39,798 nt of DNA from Phycisphaerae bacterium (lineage in GTDB: Bacteria > Planctomycetota > Phycisphaerae > UBA1845). Location of the stretch: contig DASXUA010000009.1 of the NCBI GenBank assembly GCA_036505095.1, positions 1-39,798 on the forward strand. The letters are read 5' to 3'. Numbering within the stretch: the stretch's first letter is position 1; the number at the start of each line of letters is the position of its first letter. A program made the position numbers and the translations under genes. This document shows, one piece after another, positions 1,472-23,776 of the stretch. A model generated the notes under the pieces. It saw nothing but the letters and a program-made list of their open reading frames with translations, made no database searches and had not been told where the DNA came from.

Positions 1472-1472
1472 G

Positions 1473-1554
1473 TGCGCGAGGAGAGACTCGAACTCTCACG
1501 GGTTGCCCCACAGGATCCTAAGTCCTGCGCGTCTGCCAGTTCCGCCACTCGCGC
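1473..1554 (-). tRNA. tRNA-Leu (anticodon UAG), class II, no encoded CCA
   Basis: The reverse complement GCGCGAGTGGCGGAACTGGCAGACGCGCAGGACTTAGGATCCTGTGGGGCAACCCGTGAGAGTTCGAGTCTCTCCTCGCGCA folds as a canonical cloverleaf. It has a 7-bp acceptor stem, anticodon stem CAGGA/TCCTG with loop CTTAGGA, a long variable arm and T-arm GAGAG-TTCGAGT-CTCTC. Confidence 0.9.
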
Positions 1555-8692: not shown

Positions 8693-10886
8693 CCGGGTCG
8701 AGGTTCGGTCCGAGTACGTCGAGTATGGCGCCCGCCACGCGCTGCGCGATCGGCCCCGCGGCGCGCCCGCCGCTGCCGCCGAACTCGGCCAGCACAGCGA
8801 ACGCGATCCGGGGCGGCCGCGACCAATCGGGCTGCCTCAGGTTGTCGAGTGGCTGCAAGAACCCGGCGAACCAGGCGTGGGCATGCTCGTCACCGTGCAG
8901 CGAATCGACCTGCGGCCAGCGCTCGAACACCTCAGCGTCGCGCGGCGTGACCTCGATGTCGGGATGCAGCGCGTGGAATTCTTCCATGGCCTGGCCCATG
9001 TCGCCGGCTGCCACGATAGCGAATGCTTGCCGACCATCGTGCTCCCTATAGTTGACGCGGTACGAAATCGGCCAGGGCCTGGTCGTGGCGCTGCCCGTCT
9101 TGCCGCACAACGCATAGCCCGTCGAAGGCTGAATGTAGGCATAATCGTGGGCCGTGCCGTTGGGATCATTGACGACGCGGTATAGCCCACGCCGAATCGC
9201 GTGCCACTGTGCATCGGTACCCGGCAGGCGCCATTCTGGTGAGTGATCGGCGCGCTTGAGGAGCGTGACGGGTTGGAACACGCGACTGGCGTACGCGGCC
9301 ACCAGGTTGACGACCTGCACGGGCGTGGCCGAGACTTCGCCGCCGCCGATCACGAAATTGCGCGCATCATTGGGGAACACGGGCCGCCGCCCCTCAAGCC
9401 AGGCGCGCGTCGGATTGATGCCGCGCGCGTCCTCGAGAAGGCCGGTCCCGCTTCCCCCCTTTCGGCCGAAACCCACCATCTCAAAAAATGCCGTAAGCCC
9501 GTCCACTCCCAGCAGATCGCCGATGTAATACATGTAGACGTTGCAACTGTGCGCAATGGCGTCCTCAGCCCGCTGTTCGCCGTGGGCCTTACGCGTCCCG
9601 AGGCCGGCGACTTCCCAGCAGCGTTTGCTCTTATCGCGCGGATAAACGCCGTCGCAGTAGAACGTCGTCTCCAGTGTCACGCGCCCGGTCGCCAGCGCCG
9701 CCAGGCATGCCAAAGGTTTGACGATCGAGCCGGGTGCGTAGCTGTTCGCCACCGCCCGAAATCGCAGCGGCATGTGCCGCATGTCCGCGCGCAGCGTGGC
9801 GTAGTCCTCCGTAAAACGATTCGGATCGTAGCTGGGATACGAGACCAGCGCCAGCAATTCGCGCGTCGGGATGTCCAGCACCACAACCGCACCGCCTGAC
9901 GCAAGGCTCGGAAATGCCTGCAAACTGCGCTCGAGCTCGGCGTACAGACGATCCTGCAAGTCCAAGCGGATGGTAAGGCGCGCGTCCTGCCCATCCTGCG
10001 CGGGAGTCCGTTCCAGGACTTCATCGTTACGGTTCTTCAGGAGCACGCCGCGCGTGCCGCGCAAGTCGCGCTCGGCGAGGTACTCGACACCGCTGCGGCC
10101 GACCATATCATCCGCCAGCAGCTTGCGCAGCGGCTGCTCCGCGTCCGGATCGTTCTCGATATCGCCGGCACTGACGCGCGCCACGCGCCCGAGGACGTGG
10201 GCCAGCGACACGGCGTTGTGATAGGTGCGATGCACACCGCTGCGCACGCTGACCCACGGATACGGCTCCATGGCCAGTCGCGCGGCGATGTGCTGCTGAT
10301 CATCGAGACCTTCAATTAACGCATGGGGTTGCTCTTCTTCACGTACGGTATCGTCGAATCCGCGCCGCGCAGCTACCACCTGGCGAACGGCCGCGACCCG
10401 CTGGCAGATATCTTCCGCCTGGCGCCGTAGCTCGAATTGCGGCTTGCCCGCCAGCCGCGCCAAATCCTCCCACATGCGCTTGATATCTGCCTCCAACAAC
10501 GATTGGACGTCCTGCCGCCGCTTGCCGGGACCGTAACGGTTTTGCCGCGCGTAGCTCGCGGCCCGCTTGTGTAGGCTATCGGCCCGCTTCTCCTGGCTTT
10601 CGGAATCCATCGCCAGGACGTCGTAATCGATGCAAACCTTCCAGTCCGGATCATCCGACGCCAGCACAAACCCGGTGCGATCCAGAATGCGGCCGCGCAC
10701 GCAGGGCAGTCGTTCAGCGGGTTTGAGCAAGACCTGATCGGCCTTGCGACGATAGACGTCGGCGTTGACGACCTGCAACTCGATGAGCCGGCCAACCACC
10801 ACGGCCGCGCAGATCATCAACACGCATGCCAGAATTTTGAGCCGTGTCTCAAACATGAATTGGCTCGCAAAGACCTCACCCCGCAC
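8658..10886 (-). CDS. mrdA: Penicillin-binding protein 2 (class B transpeptidase, elongasome)
   Basis: SxxK (PGSIVKP), SxN (HSCNVY) and KTG (CGKTGSA) motifs in the correct order. N-terminal TM anchor. Sits in mreD-mrdA-rodA synteny. It is longer than typical PBP2 because of an extended N-terminal module. Confidence 0.9.
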   Translation of the reverse strand: MRGEVFASQFMFETRLKILACVLMICAAVVVGRLIELQVVNADVYRRKADQVLLKPAERLPCVRGRILDRTGFVLASDDPDWKVCIDYDVLAMDSESQEKRADSLHKRAASYARQNRYGPGKRRQDVQSLLEADIKRMWEDLARLAGKPQFELRRQAEDICQRVAAVRQVVAARRGFDDTVREEEQPHALIEGLDDQQHIAARLAMEPYPWVSVRSGVHRTYHNAVSLAHVLGRVARVSAGDIENDPDAEQPLRKLLADDMVGRSGVEYLAERDLRGTRGVLLKNRNDEVLERTPAQDGQDARLTIRLDLQDRLYAELERSLQAFPSLASGGAVVVLDIPTRELLALVSYPSYDPNRFTEDYATLRADMRHMPLRFRAVANSYAPGSIVKPLACLAALATGRVTLETTFYCDGVYPRDKSKRCWEVAGLGTRKAHGEQRAEDAIAHSCNVYMYYIGDLLGVDGLTAFFEMVGFGRKGGSGTGLLEDARGINPTRAWLEGRRPVFPNDARNFVIGGGEVSATPVQVVNLVAAYASRVFQPVTLLKRADHSPEWRLPGTDAQWHAIRRGLYRVVNDPNGTAHDYAYIQPSTGYALCGKTGSATTRPWPISYRVNYREHDGRQAFAIVAAGDMGQAMEEFHALHPDIEVTPRDAEVFERWPQVDSLHGDEHAHAWFAGFLQPLDNLRQPDWSRPPRIAFAVLAEFGGSGGRAAGPIAQRVAGAILDVLGPNLDPDAPSRRIARGD

Positions 10887-11382
10887 GCGCGTGCGGGGTG
10901 ATGATCAGCCGTCGGCCCCGCAGAAGGACCCAATGCACCGGCACGGCCCACAGCCCTGTCCAGACCGCCACCGCGATCGCGTGCGCCAGCTCGCGCGTCG
11001 GTGAATCCACCGGCCAGTGGTACGCCAGATCGCGGTACATCGACATGAGCGTTTGCACACCCAGGCTGGCCAACAGCGTCAGCGAAAAATGCGTCAGCGG
11101 ATGCCGAATGAACATGAACTCGCGCACACTATGGACGGCCGCCGCCGTCAAACCATAGGTGATCGCCATCAAGCCCGGCCGCTCGATGCTCACGAGGTCA
11201 GCCCCCAAGCCGATCAGCCATGCCAGAATCGGCGCTTCCGCGCCGCGCACGTGCAAGCCGATGAAGACGGCCAGCACCAGCAGCCAATCGGGCCGCGCGC
11301 CGAGCAGCACCACGCGCGGCGCGAGCGTCACTTGCAACGTCAGCGCCGCCAGCGCCAGGATGACGAATGCCCCAATTCTCAT
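10876..11382 (-). CDS. mreD: Rod shape-determining protein MreD (putative)
   Basis: 168-aa polytopic membrane protein immediately upstream of, and overlapping, mrdA. The call rests on size, hydrophobicity and position; no diagnostic motif was seen. Confidence 0.55.
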   Translation of the reverse strand: MRIGAFVILALAALTLQVTLAPRVVLLGARPDWLLVLAVFIGLHVRGAEAPILAWLIGLGADLVSIERPGLMAITYGLTAAAVHSVREFMFIRHPLTHFSLTLLASLGVQTLMSMYRDLAYHWPVDSPTRELAHAIAVAVWTGLWAVPVHWVLLRGRRLIITPHARAG

Positions 11383-16176: not shown

Positions 16177-17301
16177 TCAGCACGCCGGACGGCCTCGGAG
16201 CGCTTCGATCCAGTCGCCGGCAGCCTCGATGCCCTGATTGCGCAGCGTGCTGACGCTCCAGATCGGGCGGTCATCGTCCAGCGCGCTGCGCAAGTGCGCC
16301 AGGGTGGCATCGGCGCCCGGCAGATCACACTTATTCACCACGAACGCACTGGCGATCTCCATGATCCCGGCCTTGGAAAACTGAATGGCATCGCCGGAGT
16401 CTGGCATCAGCAACAGCAAAGTCCGGTCGGTCAGCTTGTGCACGCCAACATCGGCTTGACCCGCACCCACCGTTTCGAGCAGGATCACGTCAAAGCCGAA
16501 GCCGGCCATCAGCCGCAGGATTTCGGCGCAGCGCGGTCCCAGACCGTCGTGGACCTCGCCGCTGGCCATGCTGCGGATGAAGAAGCCATCATCCAGCTCG
16601 CCGGACATCATGCGCAGCCGATCGCCGAGCAGCGCACCGCCCGTGATCGGACTGCTGGGATCGACCGCCAGGACGGCTACCTTCAGACCGCGCCCACGCA
16701 AGTCAGCGCTGAGCTTGCCGATGAACGAACTCTTGCCGACACCCGGTGCCCCCGTCACGCCGATCACGCGGGCCGCACCCCGCGGCGGCGTCCAGCCATT
16801 CAGACCGCCAGATCGCTGCACGTGCGTGATCAGCCGGGCCAGAGCCAGCGGCCGGCCGGTCTCGTAGCCGGCGCGGAGCGCGGCCGGCGTTTCGCGCGGA
16901 CGGCTGGCGGCAAGCTGGCGCATGCTGGCGATGATCCGGTCGAGCGGCGAGCCCGGATTGAACACCGCCGCGACCCCCATCTCCTTCAGGGATCCGTAGT
17001 CAGATTGGGGCACGATACCGCCCAGCACGACGGGGGTGCCTTCGATTCCGAGCTTGCGGGCGGCGTTGAAGATCTCCGGCATGATGGTCATGTGGGCGGC
17101 CGAGAGCAGGCTCACGCCGACCACGTCCACATCCTCCTGCATGGCCGCCTGCATGGTGGCCGCCGCCGTCTGCCAGAGGCCGGTATAGATCACGTCGAAC
17201 CCGCAATCCCGCAGGCTGCGGGCGAGGACTTTCACGCCGCGGTCGTGGCCGTCCAGACCGATTTTCGCCAGCAGCACTCTAATGTTCGCCTCACCAGGCA
17301 T
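16177..17301 (-). CDS. Fusion protein: cobalamin-binding domain (mutase small-subunit type) plus MeaB/ArgK-type G-protein chaperone
   Basis: N-terminal DxHxxG B12 motif (GLDGHDRG) with VDVVGVSLLSAAH. C-terminal P-loop GAPGVGKS, GGALLGDRLRM, ETVGAGQ and NKCD. Confidence 0.85.
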   Translation of the reverse strand: MPGEANIRVLLAKIGLDGHDRGVKVLARSLRDCGFDVIYTGLWQTAAATMQAAMQEDVDVVGVSLLSAAHMTIMPEIFNAARKLGIEGTPVVLGGIVPQSDYGSLKEMGVAAVFNPGSPLDRIIASMRQLAASRPRETPAALRAGYETGRPLALARLITHVQRSGGLNGWTPPRGAARVIGVTGAPGVGKSSFIGKLSADLRGRGLKVAVLAVDPSSPITGGALLGDRLRMMSGELDDGFFIRSMASGEVHDGLGPRCAEILRLMAGFGFDVILLETVGAGQADVGVHKLTDRTLLLLMPDSGDAIQFSKAGIMEIASAFVVNKCDLPGADATLAHLRSALDDDRPIWSVSTLRNQGIEAAGDWIEALRGRPAC

Positions 17302-17672
17302 CGGGGGCGATTATGGGGCATGCTGACGCCGCGGACAAGCCGGCGGTCGTACCGGGCGCTCGATGTGCGTCTGAGCCACCGGGGAACGAGGGCTCAACCG
17401 CACCCGGACGCGAGACGATATCGCTTGGGGTTTTGACTGTAGTCGGCGCCGTCGCGGGCCGCGATATGTTAGGCTGTATCGTTGCGTACCGTGCGCAAGC
17501 GGTTCCCTGCTCGCGTGCGGGACGTGGCACGCAAGATTAGATGCGATTTCGGTCCAGCGTAGGCGTGTCGGACACTTGCCGTCCGATAAGATAGTGTGGC
17601 TTGCTCTCGCGATCCACGAGGGACGCGCTGGCATGGGGTTGAATTCGATGGTTCGTTAACTGGGGATTAGCC

Positions 17673-18371
17673 ATGAGACTTCCTGCTCGCGGTTTGTTCG
17701 TCGTTTCGATGCTCTCGGGTGCCGTGCTGGCTGGTTGCGGCAGCACGGGCAATGGTCCGACACCCGGAATCCTGGACCGGCTGAGCACGCTCAGCGATAC
17801 CGACGGCAACGGCTTCGTCGAGGTGCCGGCCACCGCGGGGGTCGACACCAGCCGGGAAGTGGCCGTCGCTATCGAGAACGATATTACGCGTACCGAGGCG
17901 ATCAGCTTGGCTCAGACGAGCGTGCCGAACTTCGTGGCGGATTCCATCAGCTTATCAGCTACGGTCCTGGTCAAAATGACCTATGCGGATGGAAAAGAAC
18001 AACAGCTTCGCGGCTCGCGGAACATCGGCCCCTTCGATCTAGGCTTCGAGGTAGCTTGTCCGGACCGCGTCGAGGTCAATGTGAACGTGACCGCGGATAT
18101 CCCGGTCGTCGGCCGGACGAGTGTTCAGACCTTCGGCCCGTTCGTGTTCAGCAAGGGCACGAATACCGGTCAGTTCCAATGCGATACCGTCATTCACGTG
18201 CGCTCGTTCGTGGATGCCAGCGGACAGCCGAAGGCCACCGCGATGGTCGAGGCCATGCCGGGCAGCGACGGCAGCACGGGGACCGTAACCGGTGGCGATG
18301 GGACCGGGACCGGTTCAGTTGATGGCAGCGGCTCCACCACCGTCGGTACGGCGGGTACGGATCGGCGCTAA
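17673..18371 (+). CDS. Hypothetical lipoprotein
   Basis: Lipobox signal MRLPARGLFVVSMLSGAVLAGC and a Gly/Thr-rich C-terminal tail. No recognisable catalytic motif. Confidence 0.6.
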   Translation: MRLPARGLFVVSMLSGAVLAGCGSTGNGPTPGILDRLSTLSDTDGNGFVEVPATAGVDTSREVAVAIENDITRTEAISLAQTSVPNFVADSISLSATVLVKMTYADGKEQQLRGSRNIGPFDLGFEVACPDRVEVNVNVTADIPVVGRTSVQTFGPFVFSKGTNTGQFQCDTVIHVRSFVDASGQPKATAMVEAMPGSDGSTGTVTGGDGTGTGSVDGSGSTTVGTAGTDRR

Positions 18372-18624
18372 TCGGCCTGATCGCCGAGGCAATCCTCCAT
18401 CACCCCTACGCCAGGGGTGCGCGGCGGCCGCGACTTTTAGCCGCGCGCCCGAATCACCCTCACCGATCCCGGAAGAGTTGCTTGCACTGCATCGTTAGTG
18501 GCGCAGCGTCCGCGCGCGGCGCATTTGCATCTCAACGCTTTTTCGGCGATACTCGCGGGCGTCCAAACCAGGTTCATAGGAGGAGAAGTCCGCGTCCATT
18601 TCACAGCGCGCGGGAGAACGAAGC

Positions 18625-19944
18625 ATGAACGCTCAGCGCTTGATGGTTCTCGGGTTCGGGACGGCCGCCATGTTGGTGGGAAGCGCGCCGTCGCGGGCGA
18701 CGTGGTCGATTGTGCTGGTCGACTCGCAAACGAAAGAGGTGGCGATCGCCTCCGTCACCTGCCTGAACAATTTCGATCTGCTGGCGCTGACTCCGGTGAC
18801 GCTGGTCGGGATCGGGGCTGGCGTCGTCCAGGCGGCGGGCGACTTTGACGGCATCCGACGGCCGATCATTCACGACCAACTCTTGATGGGCACACCGCCG
18901 GCGCAGATTTTGACCATTCTGGCACAAGTGCCCGGGCACCAGCAGCGCCAATATGGGATTGTGAATGCGGTCGGGCAGGCGGTGACGTTCACCGGCACCC
19001 AGAACGGACAGTGGGCCGGCGGAGTGACGGGCAATATCGGGACGCTCTATTACGCCGTTCAGGGCAACGTATTGGCCGGCGGCTGCGTCGTGTCGGCCGC
19101 CGTCAGCGCGCTGCAGAACACGAGTGGCGACGTGCCGGCGAAGCTGATGGCCGGGATGCAGGCGGCCCGCATGGCCGGCGGCGATGGACGCTGCTCGTGC
19201 TCCCCGAATAACCCTGCCGGATGCGGCTGTCCGCCGCCGGCCTTCGTGAAGTCTGGACACATCGGATACATGGTGACGGCGCGCATCGGGGATACCGATG
19301 ACCCGATCTGCAATGTGAACGGCTGCTCCGACGGCTTGTATTTCATGAAGTTCGACGTGGCCTTCCAGCCGAGCAGCGCGCCCGATCCCGTGGTGCAGCT
19401 CCAGAACCTGTTCGATGCGTGGCGCGCAAATCTGGTCGGAAGGCCGGATGCGATTCAATCGACCGCGGTGTTCGATGTGGCGAGCCTGCCGCCGAATGGC
19501 ACGGCGACCGCGAACTTGACCGTTGTCTTGCGCGACTGGCAAGGGCTACCGATCAGCGTGCCGATTCAGAGCGTTGCCTACGGACACGGCCCCGGGACGG
19601 CCGGCAGCTCGACGATTGGACCATTGGTCGACCTGGGTGGCGGCATGTATAGCATCACCATCACGGCCGGAACGATCATCGGCACCGACCATTTCCGTAT
19701 CACCGTGAATGATGGCATTCGACCGGTGACGCTGATGCCCGATCCGATCCTGAATATCCGCTTCGGTGATTTCGGCGGCGACGGCGACGTCGATCTGACG
19801 GAGTACGCGACCTTCGCCGCCTGCCTGAGTGGTCCGACCGCGACCGTGAGCGACGATTGTTCGGCGGCCGATCTGGACGGGGATGCGGATGCGGATCTGA
19901 AAGAGTGCGCGGCGTTTGGCGTTAGTTTCACCGGCGCGCCGTAA
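18625..19944 (+). CDS. Secreted protein with DUF1028-like (Ntn-hydrolase-like) N-terminal domain, Ig-like middle region and dockerin/EF-hand-like C-terminus
   Basis: Signal peptide ends ...APSRA. It is followed by TWSIVLVDSQTKEVAIASVTC, which resembles the DUF1028 N-terminal T-[FW]-S-I-V motif (recalled from memory). The C-terminus reads GDFGGDGDVDLTEY...ADLDGDADADLKE. Confidence 0.6.
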   Translation: MNAQRLMVLGFGTAAMLVGSAPSRATWSIVLVDSQTKEVAIASVTCLNNFDLLALTPVTLVGIGAGVVQAAGDFDGIRRPIIHDQLLMGTPPAQILTILAQVPGHQQRQYGIVNAVGQAVTFTGTQNGQWAGGVTGNIGTLYYAVQGNVLAGGCVVSAAVSALQNTSGDVPAKLMAGMQAARMAGGDGRCSCSPNNPAGCGCPPPAFVKSGHIGYMVTARIGDTDDPICNVNGCSDGLYFMKFDVAFQPSSAPDPVVQLQNLFDAWRANLVGRPDAIQSTAVFDVASLPPNGTATANLTVVLRDWQGLPISVPIQSVAYGHGPGTAGSSTIGPLVDLGGGMYSITITAGTIIGTDHFRITVNDGIRPVTLMPDPILNIRFGDFGGDGDVDLTEYATFAACLSGPTATVSDDCSAADLDGDADADLKECAAFGVSFTGAP

Positions 19945-19948
19945 GGCG

Positions 19949-19986
19949 CATGATTGATTTGACAACTGCGAATCATGTGCTATGTT
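19949..19986 (+). promoter_or_regulatory. Sigma70-like promoter with flanking 7-bp inverted repeat
   Basis: -35 TTGACA at 19959-19964, a 16-nt spacer, and an extended -10 TGcTATGTT at 19978-19986. This is the most AT-rich patch of the window. CATGATT (19949-55) and AATCATG (19971-77) bracket the -35. Confidence 0.5.
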
Positions 19987-19995
19987 ATAGATGTG

Positions 19996-20073
19996 ATGAA
20001 TTGTTCGAGCTCATGCAGTAGTTCCGCCAGCGGCCCAGAGGGTCGAACGGAGATACTGCGCGGCGCGCGTTAA
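19996..20073 (+). other. Candidate leader mini-ORF (25 codons): MNCSSSCSSSASGPEGRTEILRGAR
   Basis: The ATG lies about 10 nt after the -10 hexamer and has no Shine-Dalgarno sequence. Seven Ser codons (TCG AGC TCA AGT AGT TCC AGC) and two Cys codons fall within the first 12 codons. Translation is unproven; the transcript could instead be a non-coding RNA. Confidence 0.25.
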
Positions 20074-20101
20074 GTACGAAGTTAACAGCCGAGCAGATTA
20101 G

Positions 20102-20136
20102 AGCCGGTCGATCCGCGCGGGTCGGCCGGTTTTTTT
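20102..20136 (+). terminator. Rho-independent terminator
   Basis: 11-bp GC-rich stem (20104-20114 ccggtcgatcc paired with 20119-20129 gggtcggccgg, including 2 G-U pairs), GCGC tetraloop, then seven T residues (20130-20136). Confidence 0.8.
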
Positions 20137-20191
20137 GTTGCGCCGGGAAGACAACGAGCAGCGTGGCTCGTGCGGATGGCCTGCGCGCTGC

Positions 20192-20276
20192 GGAGGGTGT
20201 TGTCGCTGTGGAGCGACCGCCGTCTCGAAAACGGATCGAGGCCATTGCGCCTGGGGTTCAACTCCTCCGCCCTCCG
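20192..20276 (+). tRNA. tRNA-Ser (anticodon CGA), non-canonical Sec/allo-tRNA-like cloverleaf
   Basis: 85 nt: GGAGGGTG-TT-GTCGCT-GTGG-AGCGAC-C-GCCGT-CTCGAAA-ACGGA-(17-nt variable arm)-GGGG-TTCAACT-CCTC-CGCCCTCC-G. Eight contiguous acceptor pairs, G at position 8, 6-bp D-stem with 4-nt loop, 4-bp T-stem, discriminator G. Anticodon CGA at 20226-20228. Confidence 0.8.
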
Positions 20277-20318
20277 AATGCCCGCGGGTTTGAACGTGCG
20301 GTCTGGCCCGGTAACTGA

Positions 20319-20403
20319 GGAAGCCGAAGTGGGTGTGGACCCACCACCGCCTGCTAAGCGGTCGGCGCATGCGTGGCGCGCGGTTCGACTCCGCCGGCTT
20401 CCG
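20319..20403 (+). tRNA. tRNA-Ser (anticodon GCU), non-canonical Sec/allo-tRNA-like cloverleaf
   Basis: 85 nt: GGAAGCCG-AA-GTGGGT-GTGG-ACCCAC-C-ACCGC-CTGCTAA-GCGGT-(17-nt variable arm)-GCGG-TTCGACT-CCGC-CGGCTTCC-G. The architecture matches the upstream tRNA, and the D-stem changes are compensatory relative to it. Anticodon GCT at 20353-20355. Confidence 0.8.
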
Positions 20404-20493
20404 TGCGGTGCAGATGCTATTTGGCCCAAGCCTCTGTGCGTGTAGAATGCTCCCGCCCAATAGGAGTTTCGACAGGTCGGGCGGAGGCGCAAT

Positions 20494-20979
20494 GTGCGGG
20501 TTCTGAGCGAATTATCCGAGCAAGGCCCCGAGCGACCCATTCGCGTACCGGTCTCCCAAGAGAATCCAGACGGGATCTGGGTGACCGGCGTTGCCGAGAT
20601 CCTGACGGCGCACATGGAAGAGACCCGCGTCGCCGGACTGGGAATAGCCCGGATTTCACGACTCGATGGAGTATCGACTTGGTTGCCCGAGGGCGACGAA
20701 GTCTACTTCAGAACCGCTCCCGACGAACACACACTCGAGGCTGTGCGCAAGCCAGAACCGGCCGACTACCAGCACTTTCGGCTGCCCGTCTGGATTCAAG
20801 ATCCCGAGATTCCAAGTTGCTGTGAGCGCCCGATGATGTTCGTTGGCCAACTTGATGATAACTTACTCTGCAATCAATGGCCACCGGACGCACGACTCTG
20901 GTGGCACGATGCGAACAGTTTTTATGTGTTCACCTGTCCGCAATGCTTGGGCGTGAAAGCAGTTGGCCAGCAGTTCTGA
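20494..20979 (+). CDS. Hypothetical protein with Cys-rich C-terminal module (CCERPMMFVGQLD...FTCPQC)
   Basis: GGAGG lies 6 nt before the GTG at 20494. A possible promoter is TTGGCC-N16-TAGAAT at 20421-20448. The C-terminal half loosely resembles the DUF1963/YwqG-type pattern (weak, from memory). Confidence 0.5.
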   Translation: MRVLSELSEQGPERPIRVPVSQENPDGIWVTGVAEILTAHMEETRVAGLGIARISRLDGVSTWLPEGDEVYFRTAPDEHTLEAVRKPEPADYQHFRLPVWIQDPEIPSCCERPMMFVGQLDDNLLCNQWPPDARLWWHDANSFYVFTCPQCLGVKAVGQQF

Positions 20980-21016
20980 GGCTCTCGGATTAATTCGCAT
21001 TTGCCCACGCCATCTA

Positions 21017-22627
<1,611 letters not shown>

Positions 22628-22770
22628 GCATCAGTGCTCCGGACCGACGGCATTGTAACAGCATGGGTCCATCATCGAAACACCCGACCAGGAATGATTG
22701 GCATTGGACTTCGCTTCGAACGCAACCAAGGCCCTGCCATCGCTCGACATGCCGGTGCCCGCGCACAGAC

Positions 22771-22798
22771 TTGCAAGGCGCAGTTCGGCCGTGATAAT
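22771..22798 (+). promoter_or_regulatory. Candidate promoter of the methyltransferase gene
   Basis: TTGCAA (22771-76), a 16-nt spacer, then GATAAT (22793-98), 37 nt upstream of the ATG. Confidence 0.35.
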
Positions 22799-22834
22799 GC
22801 CCGCGTGGCGCGGTGCAGTCGGCACGGAGGCAAC

Positions 22835-23776
22835 ATGACGTACGCGATCAATGAAGTGCATCAGGTCGATTGCCTGGTCGGCCTGCGCGGGCTGGAACCG
22901 GGAAGCGTCGATCTGGCCTTTGCCGATCCGCCTTTCAATATCGGCTATGACTACGACGTTTACGACGATCGGCGCGCGGCGGATGCGTATCTCGACTGGA
23001 GTCGCCAGTGGATGCAGGCCGTGTCGGAAGTGCTCACGCCGACGGGCACGTTCTGGCTGGCGATCGGCGATGAATACGCGGCCGAACTGAAGCTCATCGC
23101 GCAGAAAGAACTGGGCTTCACCTGCCGGAGTTGGGTCGTCTGGTATTATACCTTCGGCGTGCATTGCAAGAAAAAATTCGCCCGCAGCCATGCGCATCTG
23201 TTCCATTTGGTGAAGGATGGGAAACACTTCACATTCAACGACAAGGAAGCTCGCGTGCCCTCGGCGCGACAGCTCGTCTATGCTGACCGGCGAGCGGTGC
23301 CCGAGGGGCGTCTGCCCGACGACACCTGGATCCTGCGCCCGCAAGACCTGCCCGAGGGGTTGAAGCCCGACGAAGACACCTGGTATTTCCCGCGCGTCTG
23401 CGGCACGTTCAAGGAGCGCGCCGGCTGGCACGGCTGCCAGATGCCGGAGCAGCTTCTGGGCCGCATCATCCGCGTGTGTTCCAACGAAGACGAATTGATC
23501 CTCGACCCGTTCGGCGGCAGTGGGACGACCCTGGCCGTGGCGAAGAAGCTCAAGCGACGCTGGGTCGGATTCGAACTTTCCGAGCAATACGCACAGCGCA
23601 TCCGTAAGCGCCTGGACGCGATCAATCCCGGCGATCCGCTGGACGGCACCGAAAATCCGCTGACCAGCGTGCCGGCGACGGCCGATGCTCCGCGGCAGAA
23701 CGGCACTTTGCAACGCAGAGCAGGGCGCGCCGCCGGAGTCGAGGCGAAGGACGGCTCACTGTTCTCCGAAATCTAA
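22835..23776 (+). CDS. Site-specific DNA methyltransferase, beta class (N6-adenine or N4-cytosine)
   Basis: GGAGG lies 4 nt before the ATG at 22835. Motif IV ([15 protein letters not shown]) precedes motif I ([14 protein letters not shown]), the permuted beta-class order. The longer ORF starting at 21677 is an antisense artefact over the mutase gene. Confidence 0.85.

Follow-up and report, generated by a model that had tools for sequence, protein, structure and literature searches.

Can the ordinary serine codons of a bacterial chromosome be read by tRNAs that lack the canonical tRNA-Ser fold? This question is raised by two tandem tRNA-Ser genes, with the anticodons CGA and GCU, in a 39,798-nucleotide stretch of DNA (the window) that comprises positions 1 to 39,798 of contig DASXUA010000009.1 from a Phycisphaerae bacterium (assembly GCA_036505095.1). 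An initial annotation, made from the letters of the sequence, had proposed that each gene has eight acceptor pairs and four T-stem pairs (8/4), instead of the seven and five (7/5) of canonical tRNA-Ser, and that the scaffold resembles those of selenocysteine tRNA (tRNA-Sec) and of the allo-tRNAs. Comparison with related sequences confirmed that the 8/4 fold predicted for both genes is real. The genes and the spacer between them are the following.

20192..20276, plus strand: tRNA-Ser(CGA), gene 1; 85 nt, 8/4 cloverleaf (from ARAGORN and the alignment with contig L003, the closest relative)
20319..20403, plus strand: tRNA-Ser(GCU), gene 2; 85 nt, 8/4 cloverleaf (from ARAGORN)
20277..20318, plus strand: spacer between genes 1 and 2; 42 nt, unconserved in L003

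The 8/4 fold of both genes

The eight contiguous acceptor pairs noted in the initial annotation are present in both genes (GGAGGGUG/CGCCCUCC in gene 1, GGAAGCCG/CGGCUUCC in gene 2), the last of them being formed by G8 and C66. In gene 1 (GGAGGGUG UU GUCGCU GUGG AGCGAC C GCCGU CUCGAAA ACGGA, a 17-nt variable region, GGGG UUCAACU CCUC CGCCCUCC G), the acceptor (20192-20199 with 20268-20275) is followed by the linker UU, a D-stem (20202-20207 with 20212-20217) with the loop GUGG, the anticodon CGA (20226-20228) in the loop CUCGAAA (U33, A37), the variable region of 17 nt and a T-stem (20253-20256 with 20264-20267) with the T-loop UUCAACU, and the discriminator is G at 20276. In gene 2 (GGAAGCCG AA GUGGGU GUGG ACCCAC C ACCGC CUGCUAA GCGGU, 17 nt, GCGG UUCGACU CCGC CGGCUUCC G), the corresponding parts are the acceptor (20319-20326 with 20395-20402), the linker AA, the D-stem GUGGGU/ACCCAC with the loop GUGG, a 5-bp anticodon stem, the anticodon GCU (20353-20355) in the loop CUGCUAA, a 17-nt variable region, the T-stem GCGG/CCGC with the T-loop UUCGACU, and the discriminator G at 20403. 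All eight acceptor pairs and all four T-stem pairs are formed in each gene, and a fifth T-stem pair, 49:65, would oppose U to C in gene 1 and C to C in gene 2, as the initial annotation had stated. The 2-nt linker and the 6-bp D-stem with its GUGG loop, together with the compensatory differences between the two genes (GUCGCU/AGCGAC versus GUGGGU/ACCCAC) cited in its favor, were likewise borne out, and the D-arm of canonical tRNA-Ser (GCCGAGNGG-type) is indeed absent from both genes. Both anticodon loops are canonical (U33, A37, A38), the CGA gene having A36-A37-A38; both T-loops are of the form UUCRACU, and the D-loops end in GG, the last two bases of GUGG being the equivalents of G18-G19. Positions 26 and 44 are unable to pair in either gene (C.C, C.U), and CCA is encoded in neither.

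The evidence that carries the 8/4 fold is comparative. A pattern running from the D-arm to the T-loop, which matches both genes and leaves positions 8 and 49 unconstrained, had no match in 100 shuffles of the window. This pattern led to 11 metagenome contigs, ten of which have tRNA genes of like architecture and one of which (L004) has no tRNA gene. When 21 related sequences were aligned and pairs were counted under the 8/4 and 7/5 structures, the 8:66 pair was G-C in 16 sequences, A-U in four and unpaired in none, the remaining sequence (L008 GGA) having C-G but being misaligned. The rival pair, 49:65, was formed in one of the 21. Under the 8/4 structure, 96.5% of the cells are standard pairs and 18 of the 23 pairs show double changes, covariation values that were reached by none of 500 shuffles; when the partners were slid by one to three columns, pairing fell to 38-56%. 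Double changes occur at all six D-stem pairs across the family, with 97.6% of the cells paired. RNAalifold, run without an input structure, returned the 8/4 cloverleaf as the consensus and placed the nucleotide of "position 49" in the closing pair of a covarying 4-bp stem of the variable arm. Canonical tRNA-Ser controls from other loci have an unpaired U8 and a paired 49:65. The 7/5 alternative fails because the relatives show the opposite, a paired 8:66 and an unpaired 49:65. The initial annotation had allowed that homologues might favor a 7/5 fold; the 21 sequences favor 8/4. A covariance model of the family (R1) gave 86.4 bits for gene 1 and 92.4 bits for gene 2, within a range of 50-93 bits for the 8/4 family that is apart from the 25-35 bits of canonical class II tRNAs. 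On the comparative evidence of the 8:66 covariation, a rare non-canonical tRNA architecture is extended to Planctomycetota.

Predictions for the individual sequences can be set beside these results. For gene 2, unconstrained minimum free energy (MFE) folding yields precisely the 8/4 cloverleaf (-44.6 kcal/mol, z = -2.65); for gene 1, the MFE structure retains the acceptor of 8 bp and the D-stem of 6 bp. If position 8 is held unpaired, a penalty of 2.1-2.4 kcal/mol follows in both genes.

The closest relative, metagenome contig L003, is identical to L141 in assembly GCA_974706495.1 and matches the window in arrangement (DNA methyltransferase, methylmalonyl-CoA mutase, tRNA-Ser(GCU), tRNA-Ser(CGA)), its mutase gene being 82% identical in DNA sequence. 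The CGA genes of the two are 88.5% identical and the GCU genes 93%; flanks and spacer are unalignable. All differences in stems are compensatory: in the CGA gene, the D-stem changes from GUCGCU/AGCGAC to GUCACU/AGUGAC (recorded as C-G to U-A at two stacked pairs), and the anticodon stem has a U-A to C-G change. Because conservation is limited to the tRNA bodies and the stem changes are compensatory, the comparison indicates, at the level of sequence, selection on the folded RNA, and a pseudogene reading is disfavored. The same comparison set the ends of the genes. Conservation begins exactly at G20192 (G1) and extends to two bases past G73, that is, to G20276 plus 2 nt, and the mature genes were for this reason taken to be 20192-20276 and 20319-20403. 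A 9-bp acceptor made by a C(-1):G73 pair in gene 1 was rejected, as the -1 base is conserved neither in gene 2 nor in L003, and the ARAGORN start lies one base early.

Standard tools recover such genes unevenly. ARAGORN, the use of which the initial annotation had recommended, called both serine genes, its three calls in the window being tRNA-Leu(UAG), tRNA-Ser(cga) at 20191-20277 and tRNA-Ser(gct) at 20319-20403. Rfam at gathering thresholds reported the tRNA-Leu alone (55.7 bits); neither serine gene reaches the general tRNA model (RF00005, gathering 29), which at gathering also misses the 8/4 genes of L003, L005 and L006 and indeed every 8/4 gene examined. In a cluster of four 8/4 genes on contig L009, ARAGORN called one and missed three, and R1 found all four with 64-91 bits. 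Because the Rfam model, and in part ARAGORN, miss 8/4 genes, annotation by these tools can under-count tRNA-Ser in metagenome-assembled genomes (MAGs) of this kind, judging by the genes examined here. Completeness scores would be affected if that happened, and so would inferences of codon reassignment.

Predicted role in serine decoding and origin of the tandem

Most likely, both genes give rise to serine tRNAs that function in elongation and have the 8/4 scaffold. Seryl-tRNA synthetase (SerRS) takes its cues from G73, the acceptor pairs and the long variable arm without reading the anticodon, and serylation of both tRNAs would be expected for this reason. An acceptor/T helix of 12 bp is needed for RNase P, EF-Tu and the ribosome, and the 13-bp helix of tRNA-Sec is rejected by EF-Tu. 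Eight plus four pairs would make a coaxial helix of 12 bp, equal to that of seven plus five; because this length is preserved, normal RNase P cleavage, CCA addition, EF-Tu binding and fit to the ribosome would be expected. The core, in turn, would have to be tRNA-Sec-like, because a paired G8 and a tetraloop D-arm preclude the canonical 8-14 and 15-48 contacts. We also infer ordinary elongator function because 8/4 and 9/3 allo-tRNAs are processed, serylated, delivered by EF-Tu and used on the ribosome in E. coli (Mukai et al. 2017, PMC5389517).

By its anticodon, tRNA-Ser(CGA) would read UCG, and tRNA-Ser(GCU) would read AGC and AGU. Among the 448 serine codons in 20 domain-bearing open reading frames (ORFs) of the window, UCG makes up 30.4%, AGC 36.2% and AGU 8.9%. 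Because these sum to 75.5%, some three quarters of the serine codons in these ORFs would fall to the two anticodons. Complete sets of four 8/4 isoacceptors are found on two other contigs, L005 (CGA, GCU, GGA, UGA) and L009 (UGA, GGA, CGA, GCU). L005 is a cellular contig with floA, nfeD, a FAA hydrolase gene and others, and the best named homologues of its FloA are from Phycisphaerales and Phycisphaeraceae. By the codon share in the 20 window ORFs, most serine decoding can fall to anticodons borne by 8/4 genes, and complete 8/4 sets exist on cellular contigs as well.

Some observations weigh against reading the two genes as functional tRNAs native to this genome, both in the RNAs themselves and in the way the genes are distributed. 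As to the RNAs, the MFE structure of gene 1 refolds the anticodon/variable region, the full 8/4 cloverleaf (-37.3 kcal/mol) lying 1.9 kcal/mol above the MFE (-39.2 kcal/mol); a G.A opposition at 27:43 in the CGA gene leaves only four Watson-Crick pairs in the anticodon stem; and a consensus scan of the 58 nt between an upstream hairpin (20100-20133) and gene 1 found no convincing sigma-70-type promoter. The G.A opposition (occasionally A.A; alignment columns 28:45) recurs in nine of the 21 family members, including most CGA copies and several GCU copies, and because of this recurrence it is probably a tolerated trait of the family. The same opposition, and the scores of both genes below the threshold of the Rfam tRNA model, would be in keeping with non-functional relics or non-translational RNAs, that is, pseudogenes or regulatory tRNA-like RNAs such as have been proposed for some allo-tRNAs linked to toxin-antitoxin genes in Acidobacteria; some allo-tRNA(UAU) species, moreover, are inactive in E. 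coli (PMC5389517). However, every helix is intact in both genes, the changes relative to L003 are compensatory and conservation stops at the tRNA body, the anticodon loops keep U33, A37 and A38, the covariation over 21 sequences is far above that of shuffled and slid controls, and the anticodons match the commonest serine codons. We consider relics or regulatory RNAs very unlikely. Hardly credible at all is a selenocysteine-related role, in which the genes would be tRNA-Sec variants with sense anticodons, serving as substrates of SelA and SelB. At relaxed thresholds, tRNA-Sec (RF01852) is the best Rfam family for both genes (40.5 bits for gene 1, 41.8 bits for gene 2), and an 8-bp acceptor with a 6-bp D-stem and 4-nt loop are tRNA-Sec hallmarks (PMC5330540), but neither score reaches the gathering threshold (47), the branch has 12 bp (8/4) where bacterial tRNA-Sec has 13 (8/5), CGA and GCU stand in place of the anticodon UCA, and the anticodon stem has at most 5 bp and not 6. 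In addition, there are two tandem copies here and four-isoacceptor sets in relatives, and the window ORFs that were scanned yielded no sel genes. Membership in tRNA-Sec proper was ruled out by the 12-bp branch, the sense anticodons and the sub-threshold Rfam score.

With the genes read as functional elongators, we regard it as an even question whether they are the sole CGA and GCU genes of the genome. Somewhat short of even, in our judgment, is the prospect that the tandem is an accessory, horizontally acquired cassette: canonical 7/5 tRNA-Ser genes would lie elsewhere, and the tandem, derived from mobile tRNA arrays or phages, would supplement the decoding of the commonest serine codons. Cassette copies might also escape tRNA-targeting nucleases through their differing core. 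The distribution of the genes speaks for acquisition in several ways. The tandem sits in a variable stretch between the mutase gene and meaB, the cargo of which differs from relative to relative: in Phycisphaerales relatives, mutase and meaB are 0.8-1.9 kb apart on one strand with a PemK toxin gene, small ORFs or AAA_15/DUF4276 between them, as against 3.7 kb of opposite-strand genes plus the tRNAs in the window. The four-tRNA cluster of L005 is absent from the same nfeD-floA spacer in L138, L139 and L140, the FloA proteins of which are 82-89% identical. The core of the window's CGA gene is 81-85% identical to the Myxococcota-like or array copies and 68% identical to the L005 copy, and similarity among the 8/4 copies generally departs from host taxonomy. 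Large tRNA arrays (L008, with 19 tRNAs, L011, L012 and L023, a Myxococcales MAG) and the Myxococcota-like contig L006 hold members of the family as well, and the order CGA then GCU is common to the window, L003, L005, L006, L008 and L009. Some clusters combine an 8/4 serine gene with a canonical 7/5 one (L012, L057), and (8/4) tRNASer genes are present in phage tRNA clusters (Mukai et al., PMC5389517).

On the other side of this balance, no integrase, transposase, att-like repeat, phage protein or defense protein was found near the tandem, a type II-like DNA methyltransferase being the only such find. A blastn search of both genes against INPHARED (50,697 phage genomes) gave no matches. In IMG/VR, 18 loci matching a relaxed form of the pattern included no family-level R1 match (at least 50 bits), the best, at 42 bits, being a 7/5 tRNA, and the two loci matching the first pattern contain no tRNA gene. 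A relative with an 85% identical mutase has kept the tandem, the changes in it being compensatory; on L005 and on L009, all four serine isoacceptors are represented by a single 8/4 gene each, as in a housekeeping set; and the anticodons of the tandem match the commonest serine codons.

Orthologues were also sought by synteny. Contigs reached through mutase homologues (L133-L136, L160 and L161; 78-80% identity, 76-80% by tblastx) and through FloA homologues (L137-L140; 77-89% identity) had no tRNA-Ser nearby, as checked with ARAGORN on L133-L140 and with R1 on L133-L140, L160 and L161. The neighborhood therefore leads to no orthologues beyond L003/L141. Tentatively, and as a reading that we hold to be rather doubtful, the 8/4 scaffold may have entirely replaced the 7/5 one for all serine isoacceptors in this Phycisphaerales lineage, with a compact, tRNA-only cassette (...CGA-GCU...) relocating or transferring between Planctomycetota and Myxococcota; to tools that miss 8/4 genes, as the Rfam tRNA model and in part ARAGORN do, such genomes would seem to be without tRNA-Ser. 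If it is true that the lineage has no canonical tRNA-Ser, this would be a natural, wholesale replacement of a tRNA scaffold, useful for learning how a tRNA-Sec-like core is accommodated by SerRS, RNase P, EF-Tu and modification enzymes.

Genomic setting and other members of the family

Two further features of the window are given here.

20100..20133, plus strand: terminator-like G+C-rich hairpin followed by a T run (from a consensus scan only)
1472-1554, minus strand: canonical tRNA-Leu(UAG) (from ARAGORN)

The hairpin lies 3′ of the DUF1028/invasin-D3 ORF (18625-19944) and sets the upstream boundary for transcription of the tRNA unit. Judged by protein homology, the host is a Phycisphaerales-like planctomycete (Planctomycetota; Phycisphaerae; Phycisphaerales); the best named homologues of the adjacent methylmalonyl-CoA mutase gene (21017-22627, minus strand) are from Phycisphaerales, Phycisphaerae and Planctomycetota MAGs, with 73-85% identity, and a look-up of the exact mutase protein gave no record. 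The 20 window ORFs with Pfam or NCBIfam domains have ordinary chromosomal functions, among them FtsW/RodA, PBP2, Lgt, PanC, RNase E/G and PtsI. The setting of the tandem is ordinary chromosomal core, and no prophage genes were seen in it. Positions 17302-21016 form a 3.7-kb interval between the meaB/B12-binding gene (16177-17301, minus strand) and the mutase gene (21017-22627, minus strand) and contain plus-strand ORFs of 232 aa and 439 aa (the latter DUF1028 plus invasin-D3), the hairpin, the tRNA tandem and a 161-aa ORF. The comparison of this gap among relatives suggests that it may be an insertion hot spot. Divergent from the mutase gene is that of a type II-like N6/N4 DNA methyltransferase (22628-23776, plus strand), for which a cognate restriction enzyme was not identified; a 360-aa ORF that overlaps it (22631-23713, minus strand) is without a family match.

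In L003, the spacer between the two serine genes is about 550 nt long and holds a tRNA-Ile(UAU) gene, which is lacking from the spacer of the window. Bacterial isoleucine tRNAs with UAU are uncommon, the usual form being a lysidine-modified CAU tRNA. Such a gene stands beside 8/4 serine tRNA genes in two contigs, at 5601-5672 of L003 (Rfam tRNA, 70.4 bits) and at 925-997 of L009. The four 8/4 tRNA-Ser genes of L009 stand in tandem (205-825), and after them come tRNA-Arg(UCU) and this tRNA-Ile(UAU). In L005, the four 8/4 serine genes (8762-9133) lie between nfeD and floA on the opposite strand, and three of them have the T-loop AUCGUGC, not the usual UUCRANY, and the pair A8-U66. On the Myxococcota-like contig L006, a TROVE/Ro60-vWA-like ORF (9517-11019, minus strand) adjoins two tRNA-Gly genes and an 8/4 serine tandem; bacterial Ro60 loci usually have tRNA-like Y RNAs.

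A scan of genome contigs with the relaxed pattern (TGGANNNACCN{30,50}GGTTCRAMTCCNNYNNNNYCC) gave at least 119 loci. Most of those listed are canonical class II tRNAs (Actinomycetota, Acidobacteriota, the candidate phyla radiation and archaea), the relevant ones being L023, L044 and, in part, L057. Two contigs, L012 (1158-2582) and L057 (108-285), have one 8/4 or 8/4-like tRNA-Ser gene together with a canonical 7/5 tRNA-Ser gene of another anticodon; the GCU gene of L057, a Gemmatales MAG, has a 6-bp D-stem and two acceptor mismatches. L057 also bears on a possibility left by the initial annotation, namely that this geometry is simply the ordinary tRNA-Ser form throughout the phylum. For the phylum this does not hold, the canonical gene of L057 being a 7/5 tRNA-Ser(GGA); for the order Phycisphaerales it may hold. 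In three members of the family, L008 (1410-1491, minus strand), L011 (565-646, minus strand) and L013 (1046-1130, plus strand), both 8:66 and 49:65 can form. These are readable as 8/4, 7/5 or 8/5 and may be evolutionary intermediates from the canonical to the 8/4 scaffold. A degenerate tRNA-like sequence in a Phycisphaerae MAG (L108, 1993-2077, minus strand) has a good T-arm, a 3′ acceptor strand and a long variable hairpin and is without a D-stem. It was not called by ARAGORN, scores 28.5 bits with R1 and may be a tRNA remnant.

Comparison with known tRNA classes

The window genes fit the published description of "(8/4) tRNASer" (Mukai et al. 2017, PMC5389517) and are members of that class. 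Class and window genes are alike in a 12-bp branch divided as 8+4, a long D-stem with a tetraloop, a long variable arm, G73 (G73 or U73 in the class) and serine anticodons, and the match to the allo-tRNA class drawn in the initial annotation was correct. The implication there that serine anticodons would be unusual on this scaffold did not hold, (8/4) tRNASer having been a known kind since 2017. It is the serine anticodon that separates (8/4) tRNASer from the other allo-tRNAs (PMC5389517), and the window genes have CGA and GCU. The hosts differ: those reported in that paper are bacteriophages, proteobacteria and rumen Clostridia, as against a Phycisphaerales-like planctomycete and Myxococcota-like contigs here. 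Allo-tRNAs in general are described there as having an anticodon stem longer than the canonical one, a trait not clearly required of the (8/4) tRNASer subgroup, whereas the window genes have five pairs, or four plus G.A. A figure legend in the same paper classes (8/4) tRNASer with Y20 in the D-loop as allo-tRNA; the window D-loop is the tetraloop GUGG. The route of discovery described there is also of note in view of the Rfam scores: matches to a tRNA-Sec model had at first been discarded as false positives.

Allo-tRNAs with non-serine anticodons (8/4 and 9/3; Acidobacteria and others) share the scaffold and the serine identity elements with the window genes. Their anticodons are missense or nonsense ones, toxin-antitoxin genes often lie close to them, and they may act in recoding or regulation, whereas the window genes have cognate serine anticodons and would be expected to decode in the normal way. 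Two tRNAs met in the searches, in L010 (387-472, minus strand) and L044 (4095-4186, minus strand), are 8/4 tRNAs with the isoleucine anticodon GAU, a long variable arm, G73 and A8-U66; they resemble allo-tRNAs and, if serylated, would place serine at isoleucine codons. L044 is a Dehalococcoidia MAG, from a phylum unnamed for allo-tRNAs in PMC5389517.

Bacterial tRNA-Sec (selC; RF01852) and the window genes have in common the 8-bp acceptor, the 6-bp D-stem with a 4-nt loop, the long variable arm and G73. tRNA-Sec is serylated by SerRS, as is predicted for the window tRNAs. Unlike them, tRNA-Sec has a 13-bp branch (8/5), the anticodon UCA and a 6-bp anticodon stem and is served by SelB, not EF-Tu; the window genes have 12 bp and CGA or GCU. 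With canonical class II tRNA-Ser (7/5), the window genes share anticodons, the long variable arm, G73 and the T-loop consensus, but they have neither its unpaired U8, nor its 3-4-bp D-stem with a large loop, nor its 5-bp T-stem. Membership in the canonical class was rejected on the paired G8, the mismatched 49:65 and RF00005 scores below 29 bits.

In the literature searched, later work on the 8/4 architecture has mostly concerned its use in genetic-code expansion, and we found no report there of non-canonical tRNA-Ser in Planctomycetes, an absence that is not proof. Set against these known systems, the fold type has been known since 2017; the host phylum is new here, as is the tandem of CGA and GCU genes on a chromosome.

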